Positions 9,561 through 62,042 of a DNA stretch of 64,000 bases are shown one piece after another. The notes under the pieces are model-generated. The model searched no databases. It saw only the letters and a list, made by a program, of their open reading frames with translations, and had not been told where the DNA came from. Each line of letters opens with the position of its first letter. Positions within the stretch are counted from its first letter, which is position 1. Position numbers and translations under genes: made by a program. The DNA is from an uncultured Gammaproteobacteria bacterium (GTDB lineage: Bacteria > Patescibacteriota > Microgenomatia > Levybacterales > GWA1-39-11), in NCBI GenBank assembly GCA_964651815.1, contig CAZYWG010000001.1, forward strand, positions 129,189 to 193,188. Reading direction: 5' to 3'.

Positions 9561-10751
9561 GTGAAAATATTATCAAACAAATTTTTTATAATCGGCAATC
9601 TTATCCTTTTGTTAATTGCAATTCCTGTTACTTTATTCTTTGTTAAAAAGCAGCAAGAAGTCAGAAGTAAAGCAGCCGCTTCATCTAAATTGTATTTTGC
9701 ACCATCAAGCATTAATACCTCTACAACCTGTCAGAGTTTCAACGTTGACGTTATGGTTGATCCAGGGACTAATATAGTAAATGTAGTTAAATTATATATA
9801 ACTTATGATCCAACCCTGTTATCTGTTTCGCAAATTACTCCTTCTGATGCGTTTAAAGAAACTCAAAGTGCCGCAAGTATAACTAGCGGCGCTGCTAACA
9901 TAGGATTATCTACTGGGTTTAACGCTACTTCTGTTTCTAGTGTGACAAAAGTAGCAACAATTACATTTATTCCAAAAGGCACTGGCACAGCACAAATTCA
10001 ATTCGATGGGACTCAAACGGCGGTGTACTCCACCGCAAAAGCAGACGGAGCGGTAGAAAATGTTCTTCAAATAGGATCTTTGGCACCGGCAAATGCTACT
10101 ATTGGATCTGCGGAATGCCTATCAGGCCCAACAGGCTCAGTCACACCTACGGGCACGGGCTCGATCACGCCAACTGGATCTATCGCGCCAACAGGAACTC
10201 CTAGTGTAACAACAACTACATCACCAACGCCTTCTGCAGCTACTCTGGCGCCGACTTGCACAAGTTTGCTTGCAAGTCCTTCCACGGGCAACGCCCCGCT
10301 TGCCGTTCTTTTTACAGGACAGGGAAGTGATCCAAATGCAAATGGTCTAATAACTAAAGCGACATTTACTTTTGGTGATGGACAAACGCAAGATGTAACA
10401 ACAGGGCTCAATTTGAAAACTGTTAACACACAAACAAGCCATACATATCAAACTAGCGGATCATTCACAGCAACTGTTTTGTTTACTAATAATCAAAGCG
10501 CAACAAGCCAAATAAGCCAAGCGTGTTCTCAGAGTATAAATGTAACAGCAGCGTCCGGTTCGGCAACTCTTACTCCAACCGCAACCTTAATACCAACGGC
10601 AACGCCGACTTTGGTAGAAAAGCCTACAGCAACACCAACGCTCGTTGAAAAGCCAACGATTGCGCAAACAGGGAGCGTTGCCCAAACCATGGGTACACTT
10701 GGGGTAATAATAATGTCAATAGTTGGCGGCTTCTTCTTGCTAACTCTTTAA
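9561..10751 (+). CDS. Cell-surface protein: N-terminal signal/TM anchor, cohesin-like domain, PKD-like domain, Thr/Pro-rich tandem repeats and a C-terminal hydrophobic tail
   Basis: N-terminal TM helix. Cohesin-like region NVDVMVDPGTNIVNVVKLYITYDPTLLSV. PKD-like region GNAPLAVLFTGQGSDPNANGLITKATFTFGDGQ. Tandem repeat PTATPTLVEK x2. C-terminal sequence IAQTGSVAQTMGTLGVIIMSIVGGFFLLTL. Confidence 0.55.
   Translation: MKILSNKFFIIGNLILLLIAIPVTLFFVKKQQEVRSKAAASSKLYFAPSSINTSTTCQSFNVDVMVDPGTNIVNVVKLYITYDPTLLSVSQITPSDAFKETQSAASITSGAANIGLSTGFNATSVSSVTKVATITFIPKGTGTAQIQFDGTQTAVYSTAKADGAVENVLQIGSLAPANATIGSAECLSGPTGSVTPTGTGSITPTGSIAPTGTPSVTTTTSPTPSAATLAPTCTSLLASPSTGNAPLAVLFTGQGSDPNANGLITKATFTFGDGQTQDVTTGLNLKTVNTQTSHTYQTSGSFTATVLFTNNQSATSQISQACSQSINVTAASGSATLTPTATLIPTATPTLVEKPTATPTLVEKPTIAQTGSVAQTMGTLGVIIMSIVGGFFLLTL
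10593..10658 (+). repeat. Near-perfect 30-nt tandem repeat (2 copies) encoding PTATPTLVEK within the surface protein
   Basis: ccaacggcaacgccgactttggtagaaaag / cctacagcaacaccaacgctcgttgaaaag, read directly from the sequence. Confidence 0.7.
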
Positions 10752-20516: not shown

Positions 20517-21680
20517 ATGGCAATGTCTCGTGAAGGACTTACATATAGCACACGGCCGGACCACACACGTTCTCCAGAAAGAGAACGCTTCAACTTGGTT
20601 ATAGCGTCTGATCTTGAAGGCCCACATCTATTAGGGGATACAGCATTAAACGTAATGTCTGCCTATGTTCGTCCCGCAAACGGTGATCCAAATATTGATT
20701 ATGGTGCGGAATTATATGGACAAACATATGAATGGTTTGAAGAAAATTTCGATTCAAAGGGTCTTGGTCAAGAAGGTTCTGATATTGCTTTAGCTCTTGG
20801 TCTACTCATGAATTTTGGTGTTACCGGTAAAAATTTACACGAGCATGCTCTTACCTCAAAGATGGCTCCTTTTTCAGATAAATATAGAAGCTATGCCAAA
20901 TCAGAAAGCGGACTTTTATTTGGTGTGACTACAGCATGGGAGCAACCTCACAAACCAATAGTTCTTGGTCAGTTAAATTTTGACGGAATGAAAGGAACCG
21001 ATTTCCCGATTGATGACTCTACTAGAAAAATGAAAGAGTCCGGAAAATTGGATGAAGAGATGGAATTAGTTGGTAAATTTTTAGAAGACAGTTTTACCTT
21101 AATTGAAAATCGTGCTAATGCGGTTGATGAGGAGAGAGATCTCTTTGCTGTATTGCTCAGAGAAAGAATTAACAAATTTTATGGAGAGGAGATTGGAATA
21201 TCATGGGATGATAAAGGCAAGATGATTCCGGCTGCCGGTGGATTTAGAACTAAGCTTGGAGAAATCATGTCAACTCTTGATGTAATTGGTGATAAAAGAA
21301 AAGAACAGGTGGCTCAAGATTTGTTTACGAATTCTGCAACACCAAATGCGGTAAAACTTGCTATAGGAGATGGATTTAACGACAGGCGTATGCTGGCAAG
21401 CGCCCCTTGGTCAATAGGGCTCAATGGGGCAAAAGCAGCGGAAGCGGCAAAAATAGGTGTTATAACTCCGGATATCAGCACACTAATTGAAATAACGGAG
21501 CTGATTAAAAGGGACCCAAGACCAACACCTGCACGAATTGAACAAGTTGTTTTTGAATCAAATAGAATCCTAGGTGACAGGGCAATTGTGCACGCTGGAG
21601 GGCCACTATCCAAATTTCACCAAGACAAACACCAAGATATGAAAAAGGAAATTAGAGGAAAAGGTGCGCTTCTTCCCTAA
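20517..21680 (+). CDS. Hypothetical protein, possibly a HAD-superfamily-like hydrolase
   Basis: 387-aa protein. The C-terminal GDGFNDRRML resembles HAD motif IV (GDGxNDxxM). The N-terminal VIASDLEGP is a degenerate motif I. GC content is slightly above the local average. Confidence 0.35.
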   Translation: MAMSREGLTYSTRPDHTRSPERERFNLVIASDLEGPHLLGDTALNVMSAYVRPANGDPNIDYGAELYGQTYEWFEENFDSKGLGQEGSDIALALGLLMNFGVTGKNLHEHALTSKMAPFSDKYRSYAKSESGLLFGVTTAWEQPHKPIVLGQLNFDGMKGTDFPIDDSTRKMKESGKLDEEMELVGKFLEDSFTLIENRANAVDEERDLFAVLLRERINKFYGEEIGISWDDKGKMIPAAGGFRTKLGEIMSTLDVIGDKRKEQVAQDLFTNSATPNAVKLAIGDGFNDRRMLASAPWSIGLNGAKAAEAAKIGVITPDISTLIEITELIKRDPRPTPARIEQVVFESNRILGDRAIVHAGGPLSKFHQDKHQDMKKEIRGKGALLP

Positions 21681-22646: not shown

Positions 22647-24302
22647 TTATTGTGGCGTTGGCTTTGGGCTTTCAAAAATCTCCCCAACCTGTCTTAGAAT
22701 TTGATTCGGCTTTTTAAATCTTTTTAGAACTGCAATAATATAATAAGCCTCTTTTATATCAAGGAGCCACGTCAAAAAAATATAAGCCGCGAGTCCTGCC
22801 ACAGAAGCAATACCCGTAAGAAGCAATAAATTGACAGTGCGTGTGGTATCAAAAACTAGTTGGTCTAACAATTTTATTGGTACATAAAGACATATTCCAG
22901 TAATAATAGTTGCGGTGGCTATTTTTGCAAATGAGATTATCATTTCTATTTTGGGCAAAGTGATTTTCTGCTCGAGTAAAACTATCATAATAATTACGCT
23001 CATTACAGACGCCAATGAAAATGCAAATGCTAACGAATATATAGGTAAATGATTTATTAAAATGAAAAAATATGCAATCACTATGTTAAAAAAAACAGAC
23101 CCAAGTGTAACATAAAGCGGCGTTTTTGAATCATGATAAGCATAAAATGCACGAGACAAGAGAAATGACAACGAAGTTGCCGCAACGGAAATTGAAAAGT
23201 AGGCAAGTGTCAAACCTGTCTCAACTGTTGCTGCCCAATCAAAACGAGATGCCCCAAAAAAAAGTCTTACAAGCGGAATTCTAAGAACTATTAAAATCGC
23301 AGAAAGAGGCAGAGTCAAATATAGTATTTGGTTGAAAGAACTCGTAAATATTGACGTGAATTCACTTTTGTTATTTGTTTTAAGTGACATGGCGGGAAAG
23401 GATGCTTGAGCAATTGATTGACCAATTAAAAGCACCGGCGCCATTGCAAGGGTTTGCGCCAAATCCAAAACAACAAGCGAACGTGCCGATACAAATGACG
23501 CAAAGAATACGTTTGCAGTTGCTGCAATTTGTGAAACAACCAAAGTAAAAGATCTTGGTATCATAAGTTTTGTCAATCTATTTACACCAACACTTGTTTT
23601 AAAAGATATAAAAAATTTGAATCCTACATTAAAAAGAAGAGGAATTTGAACTATACAAAAGAAAAGAGATCCGAGCGCGACGCCCAATGTGGCGCCATAA
23701 ATTCCAAAATGGAAAAAATAGGAAAAAATGATTAGTCCAAGAATTATACCCAGGTTATAAAACGCCGATGCAATTCCTGGAATTACAAAATGCTGAAATG
23801 ATTGAAGGATTGCAGTAAAAAGTGTCCCTAGAATAAAGAAAACTTGTGATAATTGAATAATAATCATTAAATTTGCCATAAGAGCGAGTTCTGGTTTTGA
23901 AAAACCAGGTGCAACAAGACTTGCAAGCGGATATGCAAAAATAACAATTATTATGGAAATGAAGATAAAAAATAACGCCCCAATGCTTACGAGAGATGAT
24001 GTAAATTCATACGCTTCTTGTTTTTTGTCCTTACTCAGAAAATCTGTAAATATTGGAATAAATGAAGCTGTAAGAGCGCCCGAAATAACTACTTGAAAAA
24101 CAAAATCTGGCACCCTAAATGCTGCAAGAAAAACCCCTAGATCTGAAGACGCCCCAAAAAGGGCAACAAGCAACCTGTATTTAAGAACGCCGAATAATTG
24201 GGAGAGGATTGTTGTCAGAATTATGAAGGTTGCTGCAGTAAAAATATTTGTTTGACGAGACGTAAATGCATTAATACCCCGCTTTACAATATTTGAAACC
24301 AT
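22647..24302 (-). CDS. murJ: Lipid II flippase MurJ (MviN family)
   Basis: 551-aa protein with about 14 TM helices. The N-terminus ...AATFIILTTILSQLFGVLKYRLLVALFGASSDLGVFLAAFRVPDF is typical of MurJ. Confidence 0.85.
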   Translation of the reverse strand: MVSNIVKRGINAFTSRQTNIFTAATFIILTTILSQLFGVLKYRLLVALFGASSDLGVFLAAFRVPDFVFQVVISGALTASFIPIFTDFLSKDKKQEAYEFTSSLVSIGALFFIFISIIIVIFAYPLASLVAPGFSKPELALMANLMIIIQLSQVFFILGTLFTAILQSFQHFVIPGIASAFYNLGIILGLIIFSYFFHFGIYGATLGVALGSLFFCIVQIPLLFNVGFKFFISFKTSVGVNRLTKLMIPRSFTLVVSQIAATANVFFASFVSARSLVVLDLAQTLAMAPVLLIGQSIAQASFPAMSLKTNNKSEFTSIFTSSFNQILYLTLPLSAILIVLRIPLVRLFFGASRFDWAATVETGLTLAYFSISVAATSLSFLLSRAFYAYHDSKTPLYVTLGSVFFNIVIAYFFILINHLPIYSLAFAFSLASVMSVIIMIVLLEQKITLPKIEMIISFAKIATATIITGICLYVPIKLLDQLVFDTTRTVNLLLLTGIASVAGLAAYIFLTWLLDIKEAYYIIAVLKRFKKPNQILRQVGEIFESPKPTPQ

Positions 24303-24444: not shown

Positions 24445-24801
24445 TTGGAAAATATGCCGGTAATAAAGTCTGCAATTAAAAAATTAAGGAAAGACAGAAA
24501 GCGAGAGCGTGAAAATGACGCTTTCCGTAATGAGCTTGATAAAACTGTAAAAGAGGCTAAAAAATTGAAAACCTCAAAAGCGGTTTCTTCAGCTTCTTCT
24601 ATTTTGGATCGTGCTGTTAAGAAAAACCTTCTTCACAAAAACCGAGCAGCCAGAATTAAATCTTCTCTTGCAAAACTTGCCGGCCCCGTAAAAGGAAAAG
24701 CCAAACTAGCCGAAAAAACCACTTCCGTTAAAACTAAAAGTGTAACAAAAACGAAGTCTAAAAAAACTCAATCAAAACCCCCTAAGAAAACCTCCAAATA
24801 A
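24445..24801 (+). CDS. rpsT: 30S ribosomal protein S20 (bS20) with a Lys-rich C-terminal extension
   Basis: MPVIKSAIKKLRKDRKRERENDAFRNEL...LHKNRAARIKSSLAKL is a bS20 signature. The start is possibly at MPVIKS (24454). Confidence 0.85.
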   Translation: MENMPVIKSAIKKLRKDRKRERENDAFRNELDKTVKEAKKLKTSKAVSSASSILDRAVKKNLLHKNRAARIKSSLAKLAGPVKGKAKLAEKTTSVKTKSVTKTKSKKTQSKPPKKTSK

Positions 24802-24849
24802 GCGCTTTAGCTTTTTGACAAACCCTAAAAAACTCTCTAAACTAAATTC

Positions 24850-25395
24850 ATGCCTGATTCACCACACGTGAAGATTAATCTTATTGGGAAACAAAAAATA
24901 ACCCTTGGGGAGGATTTTTTGAGATGGGCAGTTAAGGCTGGAAGAATTATAATTGTAGTAACTGAGCTTATAGCTCTTGGCGCACTTTTATATCGCTTTA
25001 CAATTGACCGTAAAATAATTGACCTCCACGACAAAATAAAAAACGAACAACTTCTTGTAGAAAGCCAAAAGCCCAAAGAAACCACTTATAGAAGCATCCA
25101 GTCGCGTCTTGACAATGTAAAAACAATACAAGAAGAAACTAAAGCTAAAATCAATATTATGAACAGCATTGTATCGTCAATTTCCGATGGAGATTTCACC
25201 TCAACCAATATAACAGTTGATCAAAACACTATAGAAGTTCAAGGAGTCGCATTTTCAATTTTTCCTATAAATGCTTTTATAGATACTCTTAAAAAGGACC
25301 CTAATGTGACCTCTATAAGTCTTGACGATGTTACGAGCAGCAACCAAGGAGTCGGGTTTAAGATGAGTCTAGAAATAAAAGGACCAAGCTCATGA
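24850..25395 (+). CDS. PilN-like type IV pilus assembly protein (bitopic)
   Basis: Short cytoplasmic N-terminus KINLIGKQK (compare the PilN INLLP start), one TM helix, a coiled-coil region and a periplasmic-type domain. It is translationally coupled to the next gene. Confidence 0.45.
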   Translation: MPDSPHVKINLIGKQKITLGEDFLRWAVKAGRIIIVVTELIALGALLYRFTIDRKIIDLHDKIKNEQLLVESQKPKETTYRSIQSRLDNVKTIQEETKAKINIMNSIVSSISDGDFTSTNITVDQNTIEVQGVAFSIFPINAFIDTLKKDPNVTSISLDDVTSSNQGVGFKMSLEIKGPSS

Positions 25396-26018
25396 AATTC
25401 AAACTACCAAAATTTAATTCACTGAAATTTATACTTATAAAAGAGTATAGAAAATTACAAGCCTACTTAGGTACTATAAATAGCGAAAAACTTAAGGGTT
25501 ATACATATATAGTCCTCACCTTATTTACTGTTTCATTCTTTGGATTGGCCGCAATAAGCCCAACTCTAAATACTGTAATTAATTTAGATAAACAGTTTGA
25601 CGATAATTCCCTTGTTTATAATGCTCTAAAACAAAAACTCTCAAACCTAGTCTCACTTGATGAACAGTACACAAACCTACAGGATGATATAAATTCCGTG
25701 TATTCGGCAATTCCTAAGAGTCCCAAAATACCCTTACTTACGCGTCAAATAGAAAATTTAGCAAAAATGAACAATCTTATCGTTTCCAAACTAACATTCG
25801 GAACAGTAGAAATTTATCCTAATGATAAAGGAATTCCAATATATTCTTTCACATTTACAGTTGAGGTCGTAGGTAATCGTTCTGACGCGAATAATTTTAT
25901 TGCCGACATAATCAATTTTGATAGAATAGTTGGAATTGATAGAGTAGTTACAGGTGTAAATCAGGAGAAACAATATAACTTGTCCTTCACTGGACGCGCC
26001 TATTTTATACCTGACTAA
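25392..26018 (+). CDS. PilO-like type IV pilus assembly protein (bitopic)
   Basis: N-terminal TM helix and a coiled coil, then AIPKSPKIPLLTRQIENLAKMNNLIVSKLTFG, which resembles the conserved PilO core. Confidence 0.5.
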   Translation: MKFKLPKFNSLKFILIKEYRKLQAYLGTINSEKLKGYTYIVLTLFTVSFFGLAAISPTLNTVINLDKQFDDNSLVYNALKQKLSNLVSLDEQYTNLQDDINSVYSAIPKSPKIPLLTRQIENLAKMNNLIVSKLTFGTVEIYPNDKGIPIYSFTFTVEVVGNRSDANNFIADIINFDRIVGIDRVVTGVNQEKQYNLSFTGRAYFIPD

Positions 26019-26019
26019 T

Positions 26020-26328
26020 ATGCTTAAAAACCTTCTTTATTTTGCAATATTTACAACACTTATAGTTTCATCGTGGGTTGTTTTTGGAATTTACCACAGC
26101 AGCGTTACTTCAACTATAACGCCCGATACAACACTGATAATCACGCCTATCCCTTCTAGTTTTGACACCAAAACTATTAATAATATTAAAACCAGGCAAA
26201 TTATCCCCGCAGATATTTCTTTAGCAAGATCCGGGGGGGTAGCATCCAAATCTGGCACACCTTCTATTAACATCCCTTCTCCAACTTCCGTAATAGTTAA
26301 TAATTCTACTCCGTCGGCTGCTTTATGA
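26020..26328 (+). CDS. Small membrane-anchored protein with a Ser/Thr/Pro-rich tail (possibly a PilP-like accessory protein)
   Basis: 102-aa protein with an N-terminal TM helix, directly following the pilN/pilO-like genes. Confidence 0.3.
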   Translation: MLKNLLYFAIFTTLIVSSWVVFGIYHSSVTSTITPDTTLIITPIPSSFDTKTINNIKTRQIIPADISLARSGGVASKSGTPSINIPSPTSVIVNNSTPSAAL

Positions 26329-26329
26329 T

Positions 26330-27799
26330 ATGAAAAAAAAATTGTGGCATAAAAGAATTCCGACATCGGCTGCCTTTCTACTTCTTTTTATAAGTATTTG
26401 GGTAACCTCATTTCTCCTTCAAAAAGGGGCGGTTTTTATTGGCCAAGCGACACCTGATAAAACGCCGCAAAATGTTAAGATTTATAATGTGTCCGATTCT
26501 TCGTTTGCGGTTGCGTTTGCAACATATGACAAAACGGTTTCAGCGCTTCTAGTTGATGTAGACTCAAAAAATTCGAATACAATATTTGATTATAGAGACA
26601 AAAAAGGAGAAGCGAATTTTAATTCACATTTTATTGTTGTGTCTGGCCTATCTCCAAATCATAAATATTCATTTTCCATATTATCTGAGGGACAAACTTT
26701 TAATAATGGGGATTCAAAATATATTGTCAAAACCGGACCAAAAATTTCCTCAAAATCCCCAAATCAAAAGTTAATTTCCGGGAAGGTAATTCTCCCCGAT
26801 GGAACGCCTGCTCCTGACACAATTGTTCAACTTCAGGTTCCTAATGCACAAAGCATAGCTACTGTCACAGATAACAACGGCTCGTATAAAATCCAGGCGA
26901 ATATCATTAGAAGTGCCAATTTATCAACTTATATAAGACTTGGTTCATCAACTGAAATTGTATTAAAATTCTCTAATCAAAATCTTGAGTCAACTATAAA
27001 AAGCATTTACAAATCGGCCGCCACAATTCCTACAGTAACTCTTTCATATAAATATGATTTTACCCGCGTCACAAGTCAAGAATCGGCAACCGCCTCTTCA
27101 CAACTACAAGCACCCGTTCAAATTTTACAGGCTGGTGTCATAAAGATATTAAAGCCGGTGCCTGGTCAATCTTACACAGATTCTCAGCCGGTATTTCAGG
27201 GTATCGCCCTACCCACAGAAAACGTAAGTATTTTAATTAATCCGGATTCAATTAAAGCAACACTGGTTGCGGACAGGAATGGTTTTTGGTCTTATAGACC
27301 AAGTGGGCCTTTATCTCCGGGTGCTCACACTCTTACAATTAAAACCCCGAATAATCTGGGCATTTCAAAAACATTAATTGCCGATTTTAATATTTTTTCG
27401 CTTGGTACACGCGTTACGGAATCAGCGACTCCTTCCGCAACTCCCGTTATAACTTTGGCTCCCACTTTTACACCAACTCCTACTACTGTTCCGACTGTTG
27501 CTCCAACTGCGACTCCAACAATTGCAGTTCAAACTACCCAAAATCCAACTCCTACTGTTGGCACAGTATCAAATCCAACTCCTACTACCGCTCCAACTGC
27601 TGCACCTACCTTGATTGCACTTAACCCTACCTCCACTCCCACTCCAACGGTTGCAAAAGTCGCAACAAATGCGCCAACCGCGAAACCAAAATTGACAGGT
27701 GCAACTCCAGTTCCAACCGGAAGTTCGTCAACTGTAGTTTTTACATTCATTTCTGTTATATTAATAACTGCTGGAAGTGCATTATTGTTTATCCTCTAA
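26330..27799 (+). CDS. Large cell-surface protein: N-terminal signal anchor, FN3/Ig-like domains, a Thr/Pro/Ala-rich low-complexity stalk and a C-terminal hydrophobic anchor
   Basis: 489-aa protein. N-terminal TM helix. Beta-rich domains such as VKIYNVSDSSFAVAFATYDKTVSALL. PT(P/A)T-rich region. C-terminal sequence VVFTFISVILITAGSALLFIL. Confidence 0.5.
   Translation: MKKKLWHKRIPTSAAFLLLFISIWVTSFLLQKGAVFIGQATPDKTPQNVKIYNVSDSSFAVAFATYDKTVSALLVDVDSKNSNTIFDYRDKKGEANFNSHFIVVSGLSPNHKYSFSILSEGQTFNNGDSKYIVKTGPKISSKSPNQKLISGKVILPDGTPAPDTIVQLQVPNAQSIATVTDNNGSYKIQANIIRSANLSTYIRLGSSTEIVLKFSNQNLESTIKSIYKSAATIPTVTLSYKYDFTRVTSQESATASSQLQAPVQILQAGVIKILKPVPGQSYTDSQPVFQGIALPTENVSILINPDSIKATLVADRNGFWSYRPSGPLSPGAHTLTIKTPNNLGISKTLIADFNIFSLGTRVTESATPSATPVITLAPTFTPTPTTVPTVAPTATPTIAVQTTQNPTPTVGTVSNPTPTTAPTAAPTLIALNPTSTPTPTVAKVATNAPTAKPKLTGATPVPTGSSSTVVFTFISVILITAGSALLFIL
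27420..27720 (+). repeat. Low-complexity Thr/Pro/Ala-rich coding repeat region (PTxT units)
   Basis: Repeated act cct / cca act / gct cca codon blocks encoding TPTPTTVPTVAPTATPT... Confidence 0.6.
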
Positions 27800-27820: not shown

Positions 27821-29104
27821 ATGAAAATTGGTATTATTGGAGCGGGATTTACTGGACTTTCTGCAGCATTCGCCTTATCAAAAAAGGGACACGACGTTGA
27901 GGTTTTTGAACGTGATGATAAGCCTGGAGGTTTAGCAATTGGATATCAAGAAAAAGAGTGGAAATGGAGCCTTGAAAAACATTACCATCATTGGTTTACA
28001 AATGATAAATTCGTATTGAATCTCGCAAAAGAAATTGGCCACAATGTAATTATTCGGCGCCCAAAAACTTCAAACTTTGTTAATGGCCGGATTTACCAGT
28101 TTGACTCTCCTCGTGACGTTTTGTCATTTCCAGAACTATCTGTATTTAACCGTCTGCGTATGGCTGCAGTAATTGCAACTTTGCGTTACGACCCTTTTTG
28201 GCAGCCGCTTGAGAAATTTAATGCAACCGAATTTTTACCTAAAACGATGGGCGAAGAAGCTTATAGATTAATTTGGGAGCCATTGTTTAAAAATAAATTC
28301 GGACCTTACTCAGATAACATTTCTCTTGCATGGTTTTGGGCAAGAATTGTAAAACGCACACCTTCTCTTGCTTATCCTGAAGGAGGTTTTCTAACTTTTG
28401 CACAGCACCTTCAGAAAGCAATAGAAAAACGAGACGGCAAATTTCAATATAATACAGAAGTTATTGATTTGTCATCAGATAAAAATCCCCACATAAAATT
28501 TTGCAGGGTCGGAACAACTGAAACAAAATTGAAAAGTTATGACAAAGTTATAGTTACACTTCCTTCCTTCCAATTTCTAAAAATCGCACATAATTTACCT
28601 GACGAGTATAAAAATAAATTTGTAAAACTTAAAGGTCTTGGCGCAACCAATCTTATTCTTCGTCTCAAAAAACCATTTTTTCAAGATAATACGTATTGGC
28701 TTAGTATCTGTGATCCAACCTCTCCCATTATGGCAATTGTAGAACATACAAATTTTATGGACAAAAAAAATTATAACAATGAACACCTAGTTTATCTTGG
28801 AAATTATTTACCTGCAGATCACACGAGATTTACTATGGACAAAGTAGAAAAGTTAAAACTTTTTGATTCTTTTTTAAAAAAAATCAATCCCGAGTATAAA
28901 AAGAGTTTAATAGATTATGAGCTATTCAAAGCTCCATTCGCTCAACCAATTATACCGGTTAACTATTCAAAAAATATTCCTCAACATAATACTCCCCTTA
29001 AGAATGTGTATTTAGCAAATATTGAACAGGTTTACCCATGGGACAGGGGGACAAATTATGCTGTTGAACTTGGAGAAAAAATAGCAAATATTGTTTTTAA
29101 TTAA
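27821..29104 (+). CDS. FAD/NAD(P)-binding oxidoreductase of the amine-oxidase/phytoene-desaturase/protoporphyrinogen-oxidase superfamily
   Basis: N-terminal Rossmann fold MKIGIIGAGFTGLSAAFALSKKGHDVEVFERDDKPGG. It is the first gene of a co-directional operon of overlapping genes. Confidence 0.7.
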   Translation: MKIGIIGAGFTGLSAAFALSKKGHDVEVFERDDKPGGLAIGYQEKEWKWSLEKHYHHWFTNDKFVLNLAKEIGHNVIIRRPKTSNFVNGRIYQFDSPRDVLSFPELSVFNRLRMAAVIATLRYDPFWQPLEKFNATEFLPKTMGEEAYRLIWEPLFKNKFGPYSDNISLAWFWARIVKRTPSLAYPEGGFLTFAQHLQKAIEKRDGKFQYNTEVIDLSSDKNPHIKFCRVGTTETKLKSYDKVIVTLPSFQFLKIAHNLPDEYKNKFVKLKGLGATNLILRLKKPFFQDNTYWLSICDPTSPIMAIVEHTNFMDKKNYNNEHLVYLGNYLPADHTRFTMDKVEKLKLFDSFLKKINPEYKKSLIDYELFKAPFAQPIIPVNYSKNIPQHNTPLKNVYLANIEQVYPWDRGTNYAVELGEKIANIVFN

Positions 29105-31320
29105 TGGACTTTCAAAGCATATCTTCTCTTGCCTATTTTGTTTCTTTTCTTCTCCTTATAACTTGCCTTGGAATTCCAATTGTGTTTCTTCTTTTTAAAA
29201 AAAACGGGGATCATGGTTTTGCTTTTTCAAAGCTTTCTGTAATTCTTATTTTATCTTTCACTTCTTGGCTTATAGGATATATGGGAGAGGTATATATTTT
29301 TAAAACAATTTTGGCAGAATTTTTAATAATCGCAATTATTTCCTCGATTGTTTTTTTTAAAAATAAAAAAGACTTAATTAAAACTCTCAAATCTAGCAAA
29401 AAGATATTTATTTTTGAGGAACTTATTTTTTGGATTTTCTTCTTTTCTTTTATCTTAATTCGCGTAGGTAACCCAGACTTATGGCACCCTGTCATGGGTG
29501 GCGAAAAACCGATGGATTTTGCCTTCTTAAATGCAATGGTAAGAACAACTTCTCTTCCACCATTTGACCCATGGTTTGCAGGAAGTACTATCAATTATTA
29601 CTATTTTGGGCAATTTATAGGCGCGACAATTATTAAGCTATTAAATATTCCTTCTGCTATATTCTATAATCTTTTTCTTTCATACCTTTTTGCTCAAGCC
29701 GCGGTGGGCGCAGCATCAATTATTTTTTCATTCACGAAAAATAAGGCGTTTTCATTATTGGGAAGCTTCTTTCTTTTGGTATCAGGCAATTTAGCACAGA
29801 TTCCCGTAATCATTGGCTCATTCAAAACCGCTATTCCTATAAATGGGTGGTATTGGACAGCAACACGAATTATGCCAAATTTTGAAATAAATGAATTTCC
29901 ATTTTTTACATTTCTTTATGCAGATCTCCACTCTCACCTAATTGCGCTTCCCATAGATTTATTTTTAATTGCTCTTCTAACTGAATTTTATCAACTCTTG
30001 AAATCCCAGGAATTAATGCGAGCAACGTTTTTAGTAATTCTCGCATCAATTGTTCTTGGAATATTACGAATGACAAACATATGGGACTACCCTAGCTTTT
30101 TGCTATTTACTTTTTTAGTTATCTTTTTATCAATCTTACATTTTTCAAAAAAAAGCGTTTTTAAACGACTCTTAATAGCGGGTTTCTTATCCGCAATTTC
30201 AGTTGTAGTAAGTAATCTTTCTATTCTACCTTTTATTATTTTTTATAAAACCGGCCCTCTTGGCGCAACAATTTACACAGAGCACCCCACGCGAATATCT
30301 GATTATGTTTTAATTCATGGATTCTTTTTGTTTATATTAATTACTTTCTTTATTGTATTTATTAAATTTAAAAATATTTTTACTCTTTCCAAGATATATA
30401 GGCTCTTTTTGTTTATACCGTTGGCAATTTGCGTTATTTTACTCTCAAAAAGTTTGATCTTTCTAGCATTTATTTCTTTCCTAATTTCATTAACTTTTAT
30501 CACCTTTGTGATAAACAGAAATGACAAACTGGCACCTCCAGTAATTCTATTAATCTTTGCACTTTTCTTGACTTCAATTCCCGATATTATCGACATAAAA
30601 CTCGGTCTCGGAAGAATGAATACCGTTTTTAAATTCTATTTTCAAGGATGGATATTTTTTGCACTTGGATCATCGATTGCCTCATTTTTTATTTTCGAGA
30701 AGATTAAAAAACACTCAACCGTAAAAATCGTCGTAATGGTAATTTTCTTTGTATTATTTGGCGGAACGCTTTTGTATCCCGTGACAGCCACACCTGCAAA
30801 AATTAATGACAGAATGGGGCTAGATAGACGTCCCACTTTAAATGGCGAGCACTACATGAATAATTCCATTTACTACGACAAAGAGGAAAGTATCCCTCTC
30901 CGTTATGACATGTTTGCCATTGATTGGATTAAAAAAAATATAGAAGGAAAACCTGTAATTCTTGAGGCGTCTGTCCCTATTTATCGCTGGGGAAGCCGCA
31001 TCTCAATATATACAGGACTCCCTACTGTACTTGGTTGGGATTGGCACGAAATTGCGCATAGACAATATCTTCCGGCATCAGATATCCAAATCCGCACTGC
31101 TCAAATTCAACAAATATATGAATCAAATGATTTTGAAGCAACAAAAAAACTTTTGGTACTATATAATATTTCATATATTTATTTAGGTCAACTTGAGAAA
31201 GCGTATTACAATACGTCTGGTATTAGAAATATAATTGTTAAACATCCGGCATTTTTTGTGGAAGTTTACAAAAATCCACAAGTTACTATCTATAAGTTTT
31301 TGAATGGAAGATCTTATTAA
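29104..31320 (+). CDS. Chlor_Arch_YYY / DUF2298-like polytopic membrane protein (738 aa), first paralog; probably a GT-C-type transferase
   Basis: About 16 or more TM helices. Motifs EKPMDFAFLNA, DPWFAG, INYYYFG (the YYYxG motif) and GLPTVLGWDWHE. The ATG overlaps the stop of the upstream oxidoreductase. Confidence 0.6.
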   Translation: MDFQSISSLAYFVSFLLLITCLGIPIVFLLFKKNGDHGFAFSKLSVILILSFTSWLIGYMGEVYIFKTILAEFLIIAIISSIVFFKNKKDLIKTLKSSKKIFIFEELIFWIFFFSFILIRVGNPDLWHPVMGGEKPMDFAFLNAMVRTTSLPPFDPWFAGSTINYYYFGQFIGATIIKLLNIPSAIFYNLFLSYLFAQAAVGAASIIFSFTKNKAFSLLGSFFLLVSGNLAQIPVIIGSFKTAIPINGWYWTATRIMPNFEINEFPFFTFLYADLHSHLIALPIDLFLIALLTEFYQLLKSQELMRATFLVILASIVLGILRMTNIWDYPSFLLFTFLVIFLSILHFSKKSVFKRLLIAGFLSAISVVVSNLSILPFIIFYKTGPLGATIYTEHPTRISDYVLIHGFFLFILITFFIVFIKFKNIFTLSKIYRLFLFIPLAICVILLSKSLIFLAFISFLISLTFITFVINRNDKLAPPVILLIFALFLTSIPDIIDIKLGLGRMNTVFKFYFQGWIFFALGSSIASFFIFEKIKKHSTVKIVVMVIFFVLFGGTLLYPVTATPAKINDRMGLDRRPTLNGEHYMNNSIYYDKEESIPLRYDMFAIDWIKKNIEGKPVILEASVPIYRWGSRISIYTGLPTVLGWDWHEIAHRQYLPASDIQIRTAQIQQIYESNDFEATKKLLVLYNISYIYLGQLEKAYYNTSGIRNIIVKHPAFFVEVYKNPQVTIYKFLNGRSY

Positions 31321-32257
31321 AGCAAGAAAGAAAACTCGCAGAGGTTTTCAGGACGAAGATTGGCCAGATCATTACCTTGAAAAAGTGGCTTGTCCGCTGT
31401 GCAAAAGTGATTCCTATAAAAAACTCTACCCAGACTCTTACCGAAGGATCGTGAGGTGTAATAAGTGTCATCTGATATACACTAACCCGCGTCTTAAAAA
31501 AATCCATTTGAAACACCTTTATTCGCAGGAGTACTTCCAAAATACAAATTCTTCCCATTTTGGATACGAAAACTATTTGGATGATGAAGAAAAAATTGTT
31601 AAAACTTTCGCAAAAAGGATGTCTGCGATTGAAAGAGAGTTTGGCCGAGGGAAAAAGGGGAATATCTTAGACATTGGATGCGCAACCGGTTTTTTCTTAA
31701 AAGCAGCAAAAGACGCCGGCTGGCAAGTTGAAGGAGTCGAGATTTCAGAATTTGCTGCCAACTACGCTAAAAATCACTTTAAATTTAAGGTCTACTGTGA
31801 AGATTTTTTAGATATTAAAATTTCAGAAAAGTTTGATGTTATCACAATGTGGGACGTTATAGAACACTTCTATAATCCGCAAGCTGCAATTGAAAAAGCA
31901 AATAAACTTTTAAAACCCGGGGGCTTACTTGTTTTGTCAACGCCAGATGTTGCTTCACTACCGGCCAAAATAACCCGCCACAAATGGGTAGGTTACAAAC
32001 TTTCAGATGAACACTTAACTTATTTTTCTCCCAAAACTATGAAAATCTTCCTTGAAAATTCAGGGTTATCGATTGTGAGGAATGGACATGTTGGAAAACA
32101 CGTTTCACTTGATATGCTTCAGGACAGAGCATCAATTTATAGTCCTGCTTTGGGCCGCGCATTTTCTATTGCAAAACGATTTTTCCCTAAAAATTACTTT
32201 CTTTACATCAATCCATTTGACATAATGTGTGTATATGCAAAGAAAATTCTTTCATAA
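31304..32257 (+). CDS. Class I SAM-dependent methyltransferase with an N-terminal Zn-ribbon
   Basis: Zn-ribbon CPLCKS...CNKCH. SAM motif I ILDIGCATGFF. Acidic motif II-like sequence DVITMWDVIEH. Confidence 0.8.
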   Translation: MEDLIKARKKTRRGFQDEDWPDHYLEKVACPLCKSDSYKKLYPDSYRRIVRCNKCHLIYTNPRLKKIHLKHLYSQEYFQNTNSSHFGYENYLDDEEKIVKTFAKRMSAIEREFGRGKKGNILDIGCATGFFLKAAKDAGWQVEGVEISEFAANYAKNHFKFKVYCEDFLDIKISEKFDVITMWDVIEHFYNPQAAIEKANKLLKPGGLLVLSTPDVASLPAKITRHKWVGYKLSDEHLTYFSPKTMKIFLENSGLSIVRNGHVGKHVSLDMLQDRASIYSPALGRAFSIAKRFFPKNYFLYINPFDIMCVYAKKILS

Positions 32258-32285
32258 TTTCCAAGACACGCTTTCCACTTGATGA

Positions 32286-33989
32286 ATGAAATATAGAGAA
32301 AAAATTTTACTTGGATTAATATTGGCCGGGGCTTTTTTTTTGAGGTCGTACCACATTAATTGGGATCAGGGAACACATCTTCATCCCGATGAGCGTGCAA
32401 TTGTCATGAATACGCTCCCGCTTGCACTTCCCCAAAGCTTATCCCAATTTTTAAGCGTCGCGAGCCCACTTAACCCACACTTTTTCCCTTATGGAAACTT
32501 TCCGCTTTATCTTTTAAAGGCCATTTCAACATTTGCAGCAATATTTAACCATCACCTTGCTGAATATAATGGAATTGAACTTGTTGGTCGATTTATCTCC
32601 TCGCTTATTGATATACTCACGATTTTGTTAATCTTTAAAATGACAAGAATTCTGTTTGGAGAAAAGGCAGGATTTGCAGCAGCTATTATTTATGCACTTT
32701 CTGTTTTCCCAATACAAGCTTCTCATTTTTATGCAGTAGATATACTTTTAACTTTTTTTACAACCTTAACACTTTTCCGTCTTCTACTATTTCATACAAA
32801 ACCCAACATTCTTAATGCAGCATTTGTTGGCATATCTTTTGGACTTTCTCTAGTCACAAAAATAAGCGCTATTCCGCTATTTGCTGCCATAGTTGGAGCC
32901 ATTTCTATAGATTTTGTATTAATTCTTGTGAAAGCTCCACATAAATACAATGTTTGGCTTCCTCATGTTCCAATATTTTTAAAACGGCTGATTCGAGATC
33001 TTCTTTCGATTGGTTTTTTTACCACCCTTACTTTTGTCATTTTTCAACCGTATGCTCTGATTGATTCTAAAGAATTCATTTCTCAAAATTTGCTTCAATC
33101 TCAAATGAGCAATAATGCTTATATTTTCCCGTATACCCTACAGTATGTTGGAAAAATTCCATATTTTTACGAACTAAAGAATTTATTTTTATGGGGGCAA
33201 GGACCTGTAATATCATTATTGTGTCTTTTGGGTGTTTTATTTTTTGCATTGAATTACAAAAATTATCCAAAAGAAGCAAAGTCCAAGACTTTAATAATTC
33301 TATCGTTTTTACTAATTTATTTCTTAATTATTGGAAAATTCGCGGTGGGATGGATGAGATACATGTTACCACTTTATCCGCTACTTAGTATTTTTGGAGG
33401 AACTTTTTTACTTTTTTTAGTTGACAAATATTTTAAGCCTATAAAATTTAACTTTGTAAAAATTTCATTAGGTATCGCAATTTTATTGTTACTTTTAATT
33501 TGGCCAATTTCATTCATGTCGATTTATCAAAAAACAAACACCCGAGTAGCCGCAACAGATTGGATAAATAAAAACATTCCAACCGGTTCACCAATTGCCA
33601 TTGAACACTGGGATGACCAATTACCGCTGTACTCGTCAAATAACTATAATTTCATTATCCTAACGCTTTACGACCAACCCGACGACAAAACAAAATGGGC
33701 TATTATGTCCCAGAAAATAAAAGCCGCAAAATATATTATCATCGCGTCCAATAGGCTTTACATACCACTACAAAAACTTTCTGATTGTAAAAAGTTTAAA
33801 GAATGTTTCCCCTTAACCGCACAGTATTATAAAAATTTATTCTCCGGGAAGCTGGGATTCAAAAAAATTGCAGAATTTTCGTCTTATCCCACTATTCCAG
33901 TATTAAACTTGCAGATTAATGACCAAGGGGCAGACGAGTCATTTACAGTCATTGATCACCCGAAAGTGTATATTTTCAAAAAGGTGTAA
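32286..33989 (+). CDS. GT-C fold glycosyltransferase (ArnT/PMT-like)
   Basis: 567-aa polytopic protein. The first extracytoplasmic loop carries a DE motif (HLHPDERAIVMNT) and there is a C-terminal soluble domain. Confidence 0.55.
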   Translation: MKYREKILLGLILAGAFFLRSYHINWDQGTHLHPDERAIVMNTLPLALPQSLSQFLSVASPLNPHFFPYGNFPLYLLKAISTFAAIFNHHLAEYNGIELVGRFISSLIDILTILLIFKMTRILFGEKAGFAAAIIYALSVFPIQASHFYAVDILLTFFTTLTLFRLLLFHTKPNILNAAFVGISFGLSLVTKISAIPLFAAIVGAISIDFVLILVKAPHKYNVWLPHVPIFLKRLIRDLLSIGFFTTLTFVIFQPYALIDSKEFISQNLLQSQMSNNAYIFPYTLQYVGKIPYFYELKNLFLWGQGPVISLLCLLGVLFFALNYKNYPKEAKSKTLIILSFLLIYFLIIGKFAVGWMRYMLPLYPLLSIFGGTFLLFLVDKYFKPIKFNFVKISLGIAILLLLLIWPISFMSIYQKTNTRVAATDWINKNIPTGSPIAIEHWDDQLPLYSSNNYNFIILTLYDQPDDKTKWAIMSQKIKAAKYIIIASNRLYIPLQKLSDCKKFKECFPLTAQYYKNLFSGKLGFKKIAEFSSYPTIPVLNLQINDQGADESFTVIDHPKVYIFKKV

Positions 33990-35064: not shown

Positions 35065-35615
35065 AGACAAAAATTGGGTTTGATTTTGACAAAATATTTG
35101 TATCATATCCTCCAATTATTCCGGGCTTTTTAATTGAATATTTATATAAGAAGAAAAACCATAATCTTTCTTATAGAATCCCTGGTAAGGTAGAGCAAAA
35201 GATAAGGGTTCTCTCTCATACACCAATTTTTCGTCGTCCTATAAAATCTAACATTGATGCACTTAAAAAAATTTTTGATTCAAAGGAATTTAAAATATAC
35301 TTAATTTCAAGCAGGTTTTCATTTTTAAAAAAAAGGACAGATGACTGGAACCATAAACACAAACTCTCCAGTTTTTTTGAAAACATGTACTTTAACTTTG
35401 ATGATAAACAACCGCATATTTTTAAAAAAACAATCATTAAAAAGGAAGGTATTCAAAAGTTTGTGGATGATGATCTTGATCTTTTGCGATATCTTGCTAA
35501 AGAAAACGAGGACGTACAATTTTATTGGCTGAGTGATAATCATCATTTGACAAAATTACCGGAAAATATCAAAAAAATTAAAAATTTGGAAGAATTTAGA
35601 ATTAAATATTTATGA
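35061..35615 (+). CDS. Hypothetical protein, possibly a HAD-like phosphatase
   Basis: 184-aa protein. FDFDKIF is a motif I-like DxD sequence. VDDDLD is motif IV-like. Translationally coupled to both neighbours. Confidence 0.3.
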   Translation: MKTKIGFDFDKIFVSYPPIIPGFLIEYLYKKKNHNLSYRIPGKVEQKIRVLSHTPIFRRPIKSNIDALKKIFDSKEFKIYLISSRFSFLKKRTDDWNHKHKLSSFFENMYFNFDDKQPHIFKKTIIKKEGIQKFVDDDLDLLRYLAKENEDVQFYWLSDNHHLTKLPENIKKIKNLEEFRIKYL

Positions 35616-37762
35616 TCACACAAGATTTTCTGTATGTTCTCCAGTGGTGGATTCCCTTTTTTATATTGGGAATAGTTTTTTTCCCGTTAACATCTCTTGT
35701 ATTTGAAAACTTTTTGGATAAAGGTTATATTTTTTCAAGAGTAATTGCTATTGGTATAATCTCCTATGTTGTTTTTGTAATTAACGAACTTCACCTCCTA
35801 AAATTTAATACTCCTACGATTCTATTTGTTGTCTTTCTTTTTCTTATTGTTAATATTTTGATTTTTCATAAAACTAAATCCATTAACTTCAAAAAAATAA
35901 ATTACAAAATCATTATTTTTGAAGAGCTTTTATTTTTAGTAGGAATTATTATTTGGTCTTATGTCAGAGCACATGAACCAAGTATTAATGGACTTGAAAA
36001 GTTTATGGACTTTGGATTTCTGAATTCTATTTTAAGATCTGATTATATGCCACCAACTGATATGTGGTTTACACCGCTACCAATAAATTATTACTATTTT
36101 GGTCACCTAAGCACTGCCGTTATTACCAAACTCTCTTTTTTACCATCATTTTTAACATTTAATCTAATGATAGCAACTCTGTTTTCTTTTACATTTAGTC
36201 TTTCTTTCTCTCTTGCTTCAAACTTAATTTCTAAAGCTATTTCTGTTAAAAAAGGAATTTTTGGAGGATTTATTACGGCAATTCTTTTAACTTTTGGAGG
36301 TAACCTTCACATGATTTATGCATTATTTAAACCGTATGATGTAACCAACCCTGTCCCCTTTTGGAAACTTTCATTTTCCCCGCTTACTTTCCCAAATAGC
36401 TATTGGTATCCAAATGCAACGCGTTTTATTCCCTACACTATCCATGAATTCCCAATTTATTCATTTGTTGTATCCGATCTTCACGGGCATGTAATTGACA
36501 TAATGTACGTGCTCTTATCAATTACTTTAATCTACGCCCTTTTTATTAAAAAGGGGATTGATAAGGTGACACTCGTTTTAATATCTTTTTTCCTTGCAAT
36601 AATGTACATGACAAATGCGTGGGATGGTGGAATTTATTTAATGCTAGTGTGCATAATACTATTCATCAAAAATTGGCACTATATAAAAATCCGTAAAGGT
36701 CAAAAAATCTTATCAATTCTTAACCATCTTGAATTATCTAATATTAAAGTTTTTTTAACAAAACTTTTTAAACCTGCTATTAGCACTTTTATTTTATTTG
36801 TTATTTTTTCACTCCCGTTTAACATCTATTTTCAGACAGGGGCGATAGTACATGGTATTGGAGTTGTCTGCGCGCCAAGTTTTCTGACTAATATTGGTCA
36901 CTTGGGCCCGTTCTTATTTGAAGCGTCACATTGCCAAAAATCCACATGGTGGGAACTCTTAACTCTTTACGGATTTTTCTACTTTTTTGTTTTATCGTTT
37001 TTGATTTTTATATCCCGGAGCAAAAAATTGAATTTGCTAACTGAAGACTTCTTTATTTTAGCGTTAATTCTAATTTCAACTCTATTGATAATTATTCCAG
37101 AATTTTTCTATCTTAAAGATATTTATCCTGCTCATTATCGTGCAAATACCATGTTTAAACTTGTTTACCAAGCATTTATGATGCTCTCGATTGTTTCGGT
37201 TTACGTTTTAGTCAGAATTTTGAATAAAACAAAAAATATTTTCTTTTACATCATGAGTGCAATTTTAATCATCCCAATTCTTATCTATCCTTATTTTGCA
37301 ATTAGGTCATATTATGGAGATTTTAAGAACTATACTGGAATTAATGGTTCGCTTTATCTTAAAACACGCTACCCGGATGATTACTCTGCAATAAACTGGA
37401 TAAATACCAACATTCAGGGCCGACCGGTGATGGTAGAAGCACAAGGCGATTCTTACACGGATTACGAAAGGATTTCAGCAAATACAGGCCTTCCAACAAT
37501 TCTTGGCTGGACAGTCCATGAATGGCTTTGGCGTGGGACGTATGATATTCCAGCACCGCGAATTCAAGAAGTCAAAGATGTTTATGAAAATCCGGATGTT
37601 AATAAAACACGACAGATATTAAAAAAATACAATGTGCAGTATGTTTATATAGGAACACTTGAGCATCAAAAATATGTAAATTTAAAAGAGGACAAATTTG
37701 ATAAACTTGGTAAAGTGGTTTTCCAGCAAGGACAAACAACAATCATTAAACTATCTATTTAA
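35612..37762 (+). CDS. Chlor_Arch_YYY / DUF2298-like polytopic membrane protein (716 aa), second paralog
   Basis: Same architecture and motifs as the 29104-31320 gene: EKFMDFGFLNS, DMWFTP, INYYYFG and GLPTILGWTVHEWLW. Confidence 0.6.
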   Translation: MITQDFLYVLQWWIPFFILGIVFFPLTSLVFENFLDKGYIFSRVIAIGIISYVVFVINELHLLKFNTPTILFVVFLFLIVNILIFHKTKSINFKKINYKIIIFEELLFLVGIIIWSYVRAHEPSINGLEKFMDFGFLNSILRSDYMPPTDMWFTPLPINYYYFGHLSTAVITKLSFLPSFLTFNLMIATLFSFTFSLSFSLASNLISKAISVKKGIFGGFITAILLTFGGNLHMIYALFKPYDVTNPVPFWKLSFSPLTFPNSYWYPNATRFIPYTIHEFPIYSFVVSDLHGHVIDIMYVLLSITLIYALFIKKGIDKVTLVLISFFLAIMYMTNAWDGGIYLMLVCIILFIKNWHYIKIRKGQKILSILNHLELSNIKVFLTKLFKPAISTFILFVIFSLPFNIYFQTGAIVHGIGVVCAPSFLTNIGHLGPFLFEASHCQKSTWWELLTLYGFFYFFVLSFLIFISRSKKLNLLTEDFFILALILISTLLIIIPEFFYLKDIYPAHYRANTMFKLVYQAFMMLSIVSVYVLVRILNKTKNIFFYIMSAILIIPILIYPYFAIRSYYGDFKNYTGINGSLYLKTRYPDDYSAINWINTNIQGRPVMVEAQGDSYTDYERISANTGLPTILGWTVHEWLWRGTYDIPAPRIQEVKDVYENPDVNKTRQILKKYNVQYVYIGTLEHQKYVNLKEDKFDKLGKVVFQQGQTTIIKLSI

Positions 37763-42972: not shown

Positions 42973-43248
42973 TTAAATTTTAATCAGCACTTTTCCCAAA
43001 ATATTTTCTTTCTTAATTGGTTCGACTTTTAAACTATCGTTCATATTGTCTCCCCCAACAACAAAAAATTCTTGATTTATTTTTGTGATACGTTTGATGA
43101 TAATTCTATCATTATATTTGAACAAGATCACATCACCAACGCGAGGGTCTCTGAAAAAATAAGGAATTGAGCTAATAATTACATGATTGTTGGGCTTGAA
43201 TGTAGGCAACATGCTATGACCTGAAATCTTAAACAAACCGAGGATCAT
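42973..43248 (-). CDS. sodX: NiSOD maturation protease SodX (small S26-family signal-peptidase-like serine protease)
   Basis: 91-aa protein. SGHSMLPT contains the SGSM-type nucleophile, and KRITKI contains the general-base Lys. It lies immediately downstream of sodN. Confidence 0.75.
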   Translation of the reverse strand: MILGLFKISGHSMLPTFKPNNHVIISSIPYFFRDPRVGDVILFKYNDRIIIKRITKINQEFFVVGGDNMNDSLKVEPIKKENILGKVLIKI

Positions 43249-43253
43249 GGAGA

Positions 43254-61842: not shown

Positions 61843-61913
61843 CCCTTCATTTCGTAAACGGGGGGAGGACCAACTTCTTTGGCCTTGCCAAACTAAGCCT
61901 TGGCGAAGTTGTG

Positions 61914-62000
61914 CGGAGAGGGCGAGATTCGAACTCGCGGTGACGTTGCCGCCACAAAGGTTTTCAAGACCTTCGCACTAGACCACTATGCGACCTCTCC
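61914..62000 (-). tRNA. tRNA-Ser (anticodon TGA)
   Basis: Folded manually. Acceptor GGAGAGG/CCTCTCC. 3-bp D stem. Anticodon stem AAGGT/ACCTT with loop CTTGAAA. 18-nt variable arm. T arm GCGAG-TTCGAAT-CTCGC. Discriminator G. CCA is not encoded. Confidence 0.85.
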
Positions 62001-62041
62001 ACTGAAAAGTAGGCAAAAAATTAACTTATCTACTTTTCAGT
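62000..62041. repeat. Perfect 13-bp inverted repeat (hairpin) filling the spacer between the two tRNA-Ser genes
   Basis: cactgaaaagtag (62000-62012), a 16-nt loop, then ctacttttcagtg (62029-62041). Confidence 0.8.
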
Positions 62042-62042
62042 G

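Follow-up and report, generated by a model that had tools for sequence, protein, structure and literature searches.

The pilN-pilO cassette and its conservation

In this study, we analyzed a 64,000-nt stretch of DNA (the window; positions 129,189 to 193,188 of contig CAZYWG010000001.1, assembly GCA_964651815.1, from a bacterium placed in the Levybacterales of the Microgenomatia) with a focus on the genes for a PilN/PilO pair and for the two proteins encoded directly behind it. An earlier note on this DNA, made from the sequence alone, had proposed that the pair and its two companions are encoded by four adjacent open reading frames (ORFs), whose positions and strand proved to be exact:

24850..25395, + strand: pilN, 181 aa (ORF list; Pfam PF05137)
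25392..26018, + strand: pilO, 208 aa (ORF list; Pfam PF04350; 4-nt ATGA overlap with pilN)
26020..26328, + strand: small bitopic membrane protein, 102 aa (ORF list; 1-nt gap after pilO)
26330..27799, + strand: stalked Ig-like envelope protein, 489 aa (ORF list; 1-nt gap after the 102-aa gene)

Together, the four genes make up a tightly coupled operon, conserved across Microgenomates, and no terminator-like site was seen inside it in a scan of the window. Related loci were reached in three ways, via PilO, via the 489-aa protein and via PilN, which together gave 35 non-redundant loci. Every one of these has the shared order murJ(-)|rpsT-pilN-pilO-small-big, in which small and big stand for the counterparts of the 102-aa and 489-aa proteins. 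Wherever a contig reaches far enough, all members of the cassette are present (PilO in 27/27 loci, the small protein in 26/26 and the big protein in 23/23). Most junctions measure -4, -1 or +1 to +4 nt, and the co-occurrence is reciprocal, as the full set is present in loci found from PilO, from PilN or from the big protein. The arrangement persists down to ~27% identity for PilN and ~24% for PilO. Direct instances come from genomes labelled Levybacteria, Shapirobacteria and Collierbacteria and from unnamed relatives, and as a Roizmanbacteria-labelled PilN is also a member of the family, the distribution points to a PilN cassette that spans the Microgenomates. A broad PilN profile, used to look for a second PilN paralog or a PilM-PilN fusion, gave 558 matches, and the 120 listed are proteins of 176–213 aa that are apparently all of the cassette type. 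The pair had been described as an orphan, which holds in the sense that it lies apart from other pilus genes, but it is not an isolated remnant: it belongs to a fixed, lineage-wide operon with 100% co-occurrence with the 102-aa and 489-aa genes in the sampled loci. The association of the 489-aa protein with pilNO in relatives, which the earlier note had proposed as a check, was thus borne out in both directions in all 23 loci with room, and the four-gene unit was not found split up beside unrelated functions.

The membership of the first two proteins in the PilN and PilO families is secure. The 181-aa protein matches the Pfam family PilN (PF05137) with 30.1 bits (cutoff 22.8) over residues 105–175, the 208-aa protein matches PilO (PF04350) with 36.6 bits (cutoff 22) over residues 76–199, and both values are above the gathering scores. 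In addition, a profile of 13 PilN orthologs matches PilN of the Myxococcus type IVa pilus (T4aP) machine (3jc8, E = 2.8e-5), and a profile of 24 PilO homologs matches PilO of the same machine (E = 1.8e-6) as well as Pseudomonas aeruginosa PilO (2rjz, 9e-4). The predicted layout of PilN comprises a basic cytoplasmic N-terminus, a transmembrane (TM) helix at ~27–49, a coiled-coil region and the C-terminal PilN domain at 105–175. In PilO, a TM helix at ~36–57 and a long coiled-coil helix lead to an alpha/beta core at the C-terminus, and its AlphaFold2 (AF2) model, with a predicted local distance difference test score (pLDDT) of 81, consists of helices at 31–106 and 112–126, four strands and a helix at 163–174. 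When this model was used in a Foldseek search, ranks 1–4 were all PilO (3jc8_O at 4.6e-7, then 2rjz and 5uvr), and the model and its matches together display the ferredoxin-like alpha/beta core, TM helix and long coiled coil of that family. The features to which the earlier note drew attention, namely the KINLIG start, TM helices and a conserved LTRQIE core, are real; L116, T117, R118, Q119 and E121 of the core are invariant or nearly so in the 24 PilO homologs. The family assignments are not new, as public databases already label orthologs as “type 4a pilus biogenesis protein PilO”, “PilN domain-containing protein” or “Tfp pilus assembly protein PilN/PilO”.

The INL motif of PilN lies at residues 9–11 in the context KINLIGK, and across the PilN orthologs I9 and L11 are invariant and N10 is nearly invariant. 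Canonical INLLP occurs in ~20 PilN orthologs of the same cassette and is the form in most orthologs outside the window's subgroup; on comparison with this PilM-binding motif, the window protein keeps I, N and L and has LP replaced by IG. In Thermus, PilN binds PilM through its first eight residues, and a published pilN primer encodes MVIRLNLLPKN (PMC6325625). Based on the conservation of INL(LP) and on the binding of PilM by the N-terminal residues of Thermus PilN, the PilN family has, as judged from these comparisons, kept a putative PilM-docking peptide although its operon is without pilM. The PilN proteins of the Levybacteria subgroup have INL[IS]G[KR] instead of INLLP (24874–24888 in the window; loci L016–L041 compared), and other Microgenomates PilN proteins retain INLLP. 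The change in Levybacteria may reflect co-evolution with PilM or a weakened interaction.

The two downstream proteins and the genomic surroundings

The earlier note was right about the architecture of the two proteins encoded after pilO, a small membrane protein and a large protein with fibronectin type III (FN3)/immunoglobulin (Ig)-like domains and a Pro/Thr (PT) stalk. In profile scans, the 102-aa protein matched neither a Pfam nor an NCBIfam family. Its N-terminus is basic, a TM helix with a conserved W19 spans ~5–25, and the tail is variable and of low complexity. Alignments identified a conserved ectodomain motif, P43-I-P-S-S-F-D-T-K-T-I-N-N-I-K-T-R59, whose family-wide consensus is P-[IL]-x-[PS]-x-[FLI]-[DE]-x-x-[TV]-[IL]..., and only ~35 conserved residues beyond the TM helix, the remainder being low-complexity. 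An exhaustive search with the small protein gave 390 representative clusters, and the best 150 of the 390 are all stand-alone proteins of 62–142 aa. PilP was considered as an identity for this protein and rejected, since there is no cysteine/lipobox, no profile match and no room for the HR beta-sandwich; at most, the protein works like the PilNO-binding part of PilP without being a member of that family.

The 489-aa protein has sub-threshold Pfam matches to fn3 / Pur_ac_phosph_N, CarboxypepD_reg-like and Big_13 domains, and many of its listed orthologs carry precomputed PF19077, PF00041 or PF16656 domains. Its AF2 model (pLDDT 78.9) has three beta-sandwich domains, a disordered PT stalk and a helix at either end. 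A conserved KRIPT motif at the N-terminus precedes a helix at 12–38, and the beta-sandwiches are FN3-like (~45–135), CarboxypepD_reg-like (148–245) and Big_13 (270–355), with the disordered Pro/Thr stalk of ~100 residues modelled at 363–460. The structures that Foldseek matched to this model are all generic tandem arrays of Ig/FN3 domains, such as those of adhesin extenders, the S-layer protein SlaB and fibronectin, for which reason we rejected its identification as any specific machine part. A secretin (PilQ) was also rejected, as there is no secretin-family Pfam match and the model consists of three Ig-like beta-sandwiches plus a stalk.

At the C-terminus of the 489-aa protein, P-T-G at 462–464 is followed by a hydrophobic helix at 466–488 with no basic tail, and the protein ends in ...LLFIL. 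The tail motif across the family is P-[TP]-G, in which G464 alone is invariant, as seen in 46 sequences. This tail resembles a sorting signal; it was not accepted as a curated LPXTG sorting signal, as its LPXTG_anchor (TIGR01167) score of 11.1 bits lies under the cutoff of 15.9, which the highest-scoring ortholog tail (L003), at 15.8 bits, does not reach either. The same tail type is common to several PT-rich surface proteins (window 9561–10751, +, and 26330–27799, +; L017 12158–13075; L018 6757–7338) and takes the form x-T-G-S or LPVAG-like, then ~20 hydrophobic residues and an end of ...G..LL[FLA]x[LF] that lacks a basic tail. Among curated models, TIGR01167 matches it best, at or below the cutoff, and this tail may represent an LPXTG-like or lineage-specific sorting signal. 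The PT stalk is encoded at 27416–27709, and here and in relatives its gene is followed by those for an FAD oxidase and for PMT_2/DUF2298 proteins (27821–33989 and 35612–37762); in the window, the FAD amine-oxidase-type gene begins after 21 nt and the DUF2298 and PMT_2 membrane glycosyltransferase genes come next. Since these adjacent PMT_2/DUF2298 enzymes are relatives of protein O-mannosyltransferases, the Pro/Thr stalk may be O-glycosylated.

Upstream of the cassette, the following features were identified:

22647..24302, - strand: murJ, lipid II flippase (Pfam PF03023, 215.7 bits; divergent conserved neighbor, context only)
24445..24801, + strand: rpsT, ribosomal protein S20 (Pfam PF01649, 47.1 bits; conserved upstream neighbor, outside the functional unit)
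24815..24843, + strand: promoter-like site TTGACA-17-TAAACT in the rpsT-pilN interval (consensus scan, 10/12 matches)

The promoter-like site is a consensus match only. Its -10 element ends 7 nt ahead of the pilN ATG within an rpsT-pilN spacer of 48 nt, and no Shine-Dalgarno sequence is visible in 24815–24849 ahead of pilN. Because of that short distance and the lack of a visible Shine-Dalgarno sequence, the pilN transcript may be leaderless. The gene rpsT precedes pilN in essentially all loci that reach far enough upstream (it was not called in L040), and murJ is kept in all loci that reach that far. The genes beyond the big protein vary between loci. Outside Levybacteria, one or two extra ORFs for PT- or Cys-rich surface proteins with similar C-terminal tails extend the cassette:

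L016, 12269–14130
L017, 11361–13075
L018, 5320–7338
L039, 12804–14986
L041, 13560–16386

These extra ORFs are of two types, one of ~400–580 aa, in which a Pro-rich N-terminus is combined with a single TM helix and a Cys-rich ectodomain, and the other shorter and PT-rich with the same kind of C-terminal tail. Apart from an fn3 match in L017, no Pfam family was matched by any of them. Five of the records for metagenome-assembled genomes (L010, L011, L012, L014 and L016) are titled “uncultured Gammaproteobacteria” or “Pseudomonadales” yet carry the Patescibacteria cassette, and are probably mislabelled submissions.

Other features of the window lie outside the cassette. A nickel superoxide dismutase (HCDIPCGVYD after a leader) was recognized by eye in the translations of 42973–43784 (-), where it adjoins a small S26-like peptidase ORF whose product is probably its maturation protease. 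Two tRNA-Ser genes with the anticodons TGA and GCT lie at 61913–62128 (-), and an 82-aa ORF at 61900–62148 was rejected as a spurious translation across them. A 387-aa protein encoded between purL and a PfkB kinase gene (20517–21680, +) recurs in the identical Logan contigs L001 and L002, and matched no Pfam family.

The search for other pilus genes and the proposed role of the cassette

ORF inspection, motif scans and Pfam scans of the 64-kb window revealed no pilM, pilB/T, pilC, prepilin peptidase or pilin-like N-terminus, in agreement with the earlier note. The motif scans targeted T2SSE Walker boxes, pilin N-termini and peptidase A24, and the Pfam scans, run in three batches, covered the ORFs that were not obvious by eye, whereas the obvious housekeeping ORFs (GroEL/ES, LepA, Pur genes and others) were assigned solely by eye. 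Similarly, motif scans and Pfam annotations revealed no other pilus genes within ±10 kb in the 35 related loci (~545 kb). A partial ORF at the end of the window (62643–64000, +) encodes an N-terminal TM segment and a DUF87/HerA / FtsK / TrwB-like P-loop region; its predicted product is a coupling-protein-like ATPase and not a pilus ATPase.

A comparison with published genomes suggests where the partners of this pair may be. The closed Microgenomates genome Ch65 is reported to have a single type IV pilus (T4P) locus with PilA, minor pilins, PilD, PilB, PilT, PilC and PilM; PilN and PilO are not named in the list for that locus, and the genome also has a sortase (PMC7143001). The supplementary files of the Ch65 paper have no PilN/PilO/PilM entries. 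The candidate phyla radiation (CPR) shows an enrichment of the PilB/T/C/M/N/O families and lacks PilQ (PMC6744442), and PilMNO is essential for T4aP assembly in monoderms (PMC6916266). On the basis of the conserved INLLP motif, the Ch65 list with PilM and without PilN/PilO, the enrichment across CPR and the contrast with Saccharibacteria described below, we favor the simple reading that this pair is the organism's T4aP PilN/PilO, relocated to a separate operon, and it is probably the only such pair of the organism. Of the two functions that the earlier note had offered, an alignment subcomplex for a filament encoded elsewhere is thus favored, and a repurposed PilN/PilO scaffold is less so.

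We consider it rather likely that these are real PilN and PilO proteins of the T4aP assembly (“alignment”) subcomplex in a Levybacteria-type Microgenomates CPR bacterium whose pilus is encoded elsewhere. From established knowledge of T4aP, PilN and PilO would, with good probability, heterodimerize in the membrane and ring the PilC platform. PilN would recruit PilM, and PilM would contact the extension ATPase, a set that is required for assembly even in monoderms (PMC6916266). More tentatively, the 102-aa protein could be a third subunit that binds PilN/PilO via its short conserved ectodomain motif, and the 489-aa stalk protein could form a connection or anchor between the PilNO ring and the cell wall, or one that passes through the wall. 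By gene order and by analogy, the two proteins might take the place that PilP and PilQ have in diderms, or that of the extracellular extension of Firmicutes PilO. That extension is large, has an unexplained function, is speculated to cross or anchor to peptidoglycan and is listed as an open question (PMC6916266). The hypothesis that the downstream proteins work in the same machine is based on their translational coupling to pilO, on a gene order that parallels pilN-pilO-pilP-pilQ and on the existence of the Firmicutes PilO extension; furthermore, a membrane protein with a PT stalk of ~100 residues and a sortase-signal-like tail is a plausible membrane-to-wall tether. Possibly, then, the 102-aa and 489-aa proteins are unrecognized Microgenomates T4P parts that, with PilN/PilO, anchor the platform to the wall and/or hold a passage through the wall or surface layer open, as a monoderm counterpart of PilP-PilQ or a “split” version of the enlarged Firmicutes PilO, although we regard this fuller proposal as doubtful.

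Several observations weigh against this interpretation and bear on the alternatives to it. The suggestion that the two proteins are not PilN and PilO at all, but generic bitopic coiled-coil membrane proteins matched by chance or composition, could draw on their modest Pfam scores (30 and 37 bits) and on their ~13–17% identity to characterized PilN and PilO; however, both scores exceed the curated thresholds, independent family profiles find PilN and PilO specifically in the PDB, PilO structures occupy the top four ranks of the fold search, and the pilN-then-pilO order, the topology and the INLLP motif all agree, so that this suggestion is already effectively refuted. One objection is that no pilM, pilB, pilC or pilin was found in the part of this genome that was covered, 64 kb of a 193,788-bp contig, and that the Ch65 argument rests on a published list (PMC7143001). 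The conserved neighbors are cell-envelope genes (MurJ, LytR-CpsA-Psr, FemAB and PMT_2/DUF2298) and not pilus genes, those around the cassette in the window encoding MurJ, LytR-CpsA-Psr, FemAB, GT2, PMT_2 and DUF2298 proteins, and the predicted binding of PilM may be altered in the window's subgroup, where INLIG takes the place of INLLP. Potentially, PilN and PilO could be a repurposed scaffold that is independent of pili and organizes or anchors the Ig-like surface protein or an envelope-biogenesis complex, as the consistent envelope-biogenesis neighborhood, the lack of any pilus gene in the window or around the related loci and the loss of LP in this subgroup would allow. There is also a documented reuse of PilMNO, in the flagellar motor cage of Helicobacter pylori (PMC10823254). 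However, that set keeps pilM in its operon, unlike the Microgenomates cassette, the PilM-binding INLLP is conserved through most of the PilN family, monoderm T4aP need PilN/PilO (PMC6916266), and the reported Microgenomates pilus locus, with PilM and no listed PilN/PilO, makes this pair its obvious partner. We consider such a repurposing improbable.

The remaining question is whether the two downstream proteins share the function of the pair. They may instead be unrelated surface passengers, associated with the wall or S-layer and co-transcribed in a frozen order while PilN/PilO serve the pilus. Two genes without a pilus function, rpsT and murJ, are kept beside pilN as strictly as the genes downstream of it, which shows that gene order is very stable here regardless of function, and synteny is weak functional evidence in these genomes. 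In addition, the folds of the 489-aa protein are generic Ig-like ones and nothing links it specifically to pili; it shares its tail type with another surface protein of the window (9561–10751), further PT- or Cys-rich surface proteins are appended outside Levybacteria, and the PMT_2-type glycosyltransferases encoded downstream fit a glycosylated surface protein, so it may simply be one that is served by these adjacent enzymes. On the other hand, pilO and the small and big genes are joined by overlaps or gaps of 1–4 nt in most loci, in contrast to the 48-nt rpsT-pilN spacer with its promoter-like site; the reciprocal co-occurrence in all 23 loci extends over deep divergence, whereas the genes after the big protein vary; and the small protein is found in no other form among the best 150 of 390 representatives. 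On balance, we judge passenger status to be somewhat unlikely.

Relation to known systems and significance

The Microgenomates cassette has similarities to the PilM-PilN-PilO(-PilP) systems of diderms (Myxococcus xanthus 3jc8, Pseudomonas aeruginosa and Thermus thermophilus). These include the PilN and PilO families themselves, with bitopic, N-in proteins of ~180–210 aa that have a coiled coil and a C-terminal alpha/beta core, the coupled pilN-pilO order and the N-terminal (I/L)NLLP in most orthologs. As in the diderm order pilN-pilO-pilP-pilQ, the genes after pilO encode first a small envelope protein and next a large extracytoplasmic one. However, the Microgenomates operon is without pilM, has no pilus gene nearby and belongs to an organism without an outer membrane. 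Its third product lacks the lipobox of PilP and offers no space for an HR beta-sandwich, and its fourth differs from the secretin in being built of three Ig-like domains, a PT stalk and a hydrophobic tail at the C-terminus.

Among monoderms, the Firmicutes (Streptococcus sanguinis and Clostridium spp.) are similar in having no PilP/PilQ, in that PilN/PilO are expected to be assembly components and not mere aligners, and in an extra extracytoplasmic module associated with PilO that is speculated to deal with peptidoglycan (PMC6916266). In Firmicutes this module is fused to PilO (56.6 kDa), whereas Microgenomates PilO is of canonical size and the module, if any, is encoded by separate, translationally coupled genes. 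Firmicutes PilN is also proposed to use a C-terminal motif for PilM, in contrast to the diderm-type N-terminal motif of Microgenomates PilN, and the pil genes of Firmicutes are clustered, while the Microgenomates pilNO genes are detached. No structural description of the Firmicutes PilO extension was found in our literature search. Saccharibacteria (TM7x), whose pili are the best studied in CPR, are likewise CPR monoderms with T4aP-type PilM/N/O and no PilQ, but both TM7x loci hold pilM-pilN-pilO together with pilB and pilC (PMC11623550), whereas Microgenomates pilN-pilO lies beside rpsT/murJ with two extra conserved genes. The PilMNO homologs of the H. pylori flagellar cage are also encoded apart from pilus genes and are a precedent for scaffold reuse; H. 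pylori, however, has no T4P and has pilM in the operon, whereas CPR generally have T4P and the Microgenomates operon is without pilM.

In the literature that we searched, no description of a detached, Microgenomates-wide four-gene module was found, and the conserved module appears to be undescribed, whereas its PilN and PilO are already annotated. If the downstream proteins are unrelated to pili, the finding shrinks to a routine annotated PilN/PilO pair in an unusual genomic position. The detached cassette would nevertheless explain why surveys of Microgenomates report a pilus locus with PilM and without PilN/PilO. CPR bacteria depend on type IV pili for their epibiotic lifestyle, and how T4P get through or attach to the wall of cells that have no outer membrane is a listed open question (PMC6916266), for which the only candidate so far has been the unexplained extension of Firmicutes PilO. 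A module that pairs canonical PilN/PilO with two dedicated extracytoplasmic proteins would provide concrete candidates for this monoderm wall-crossing problem.

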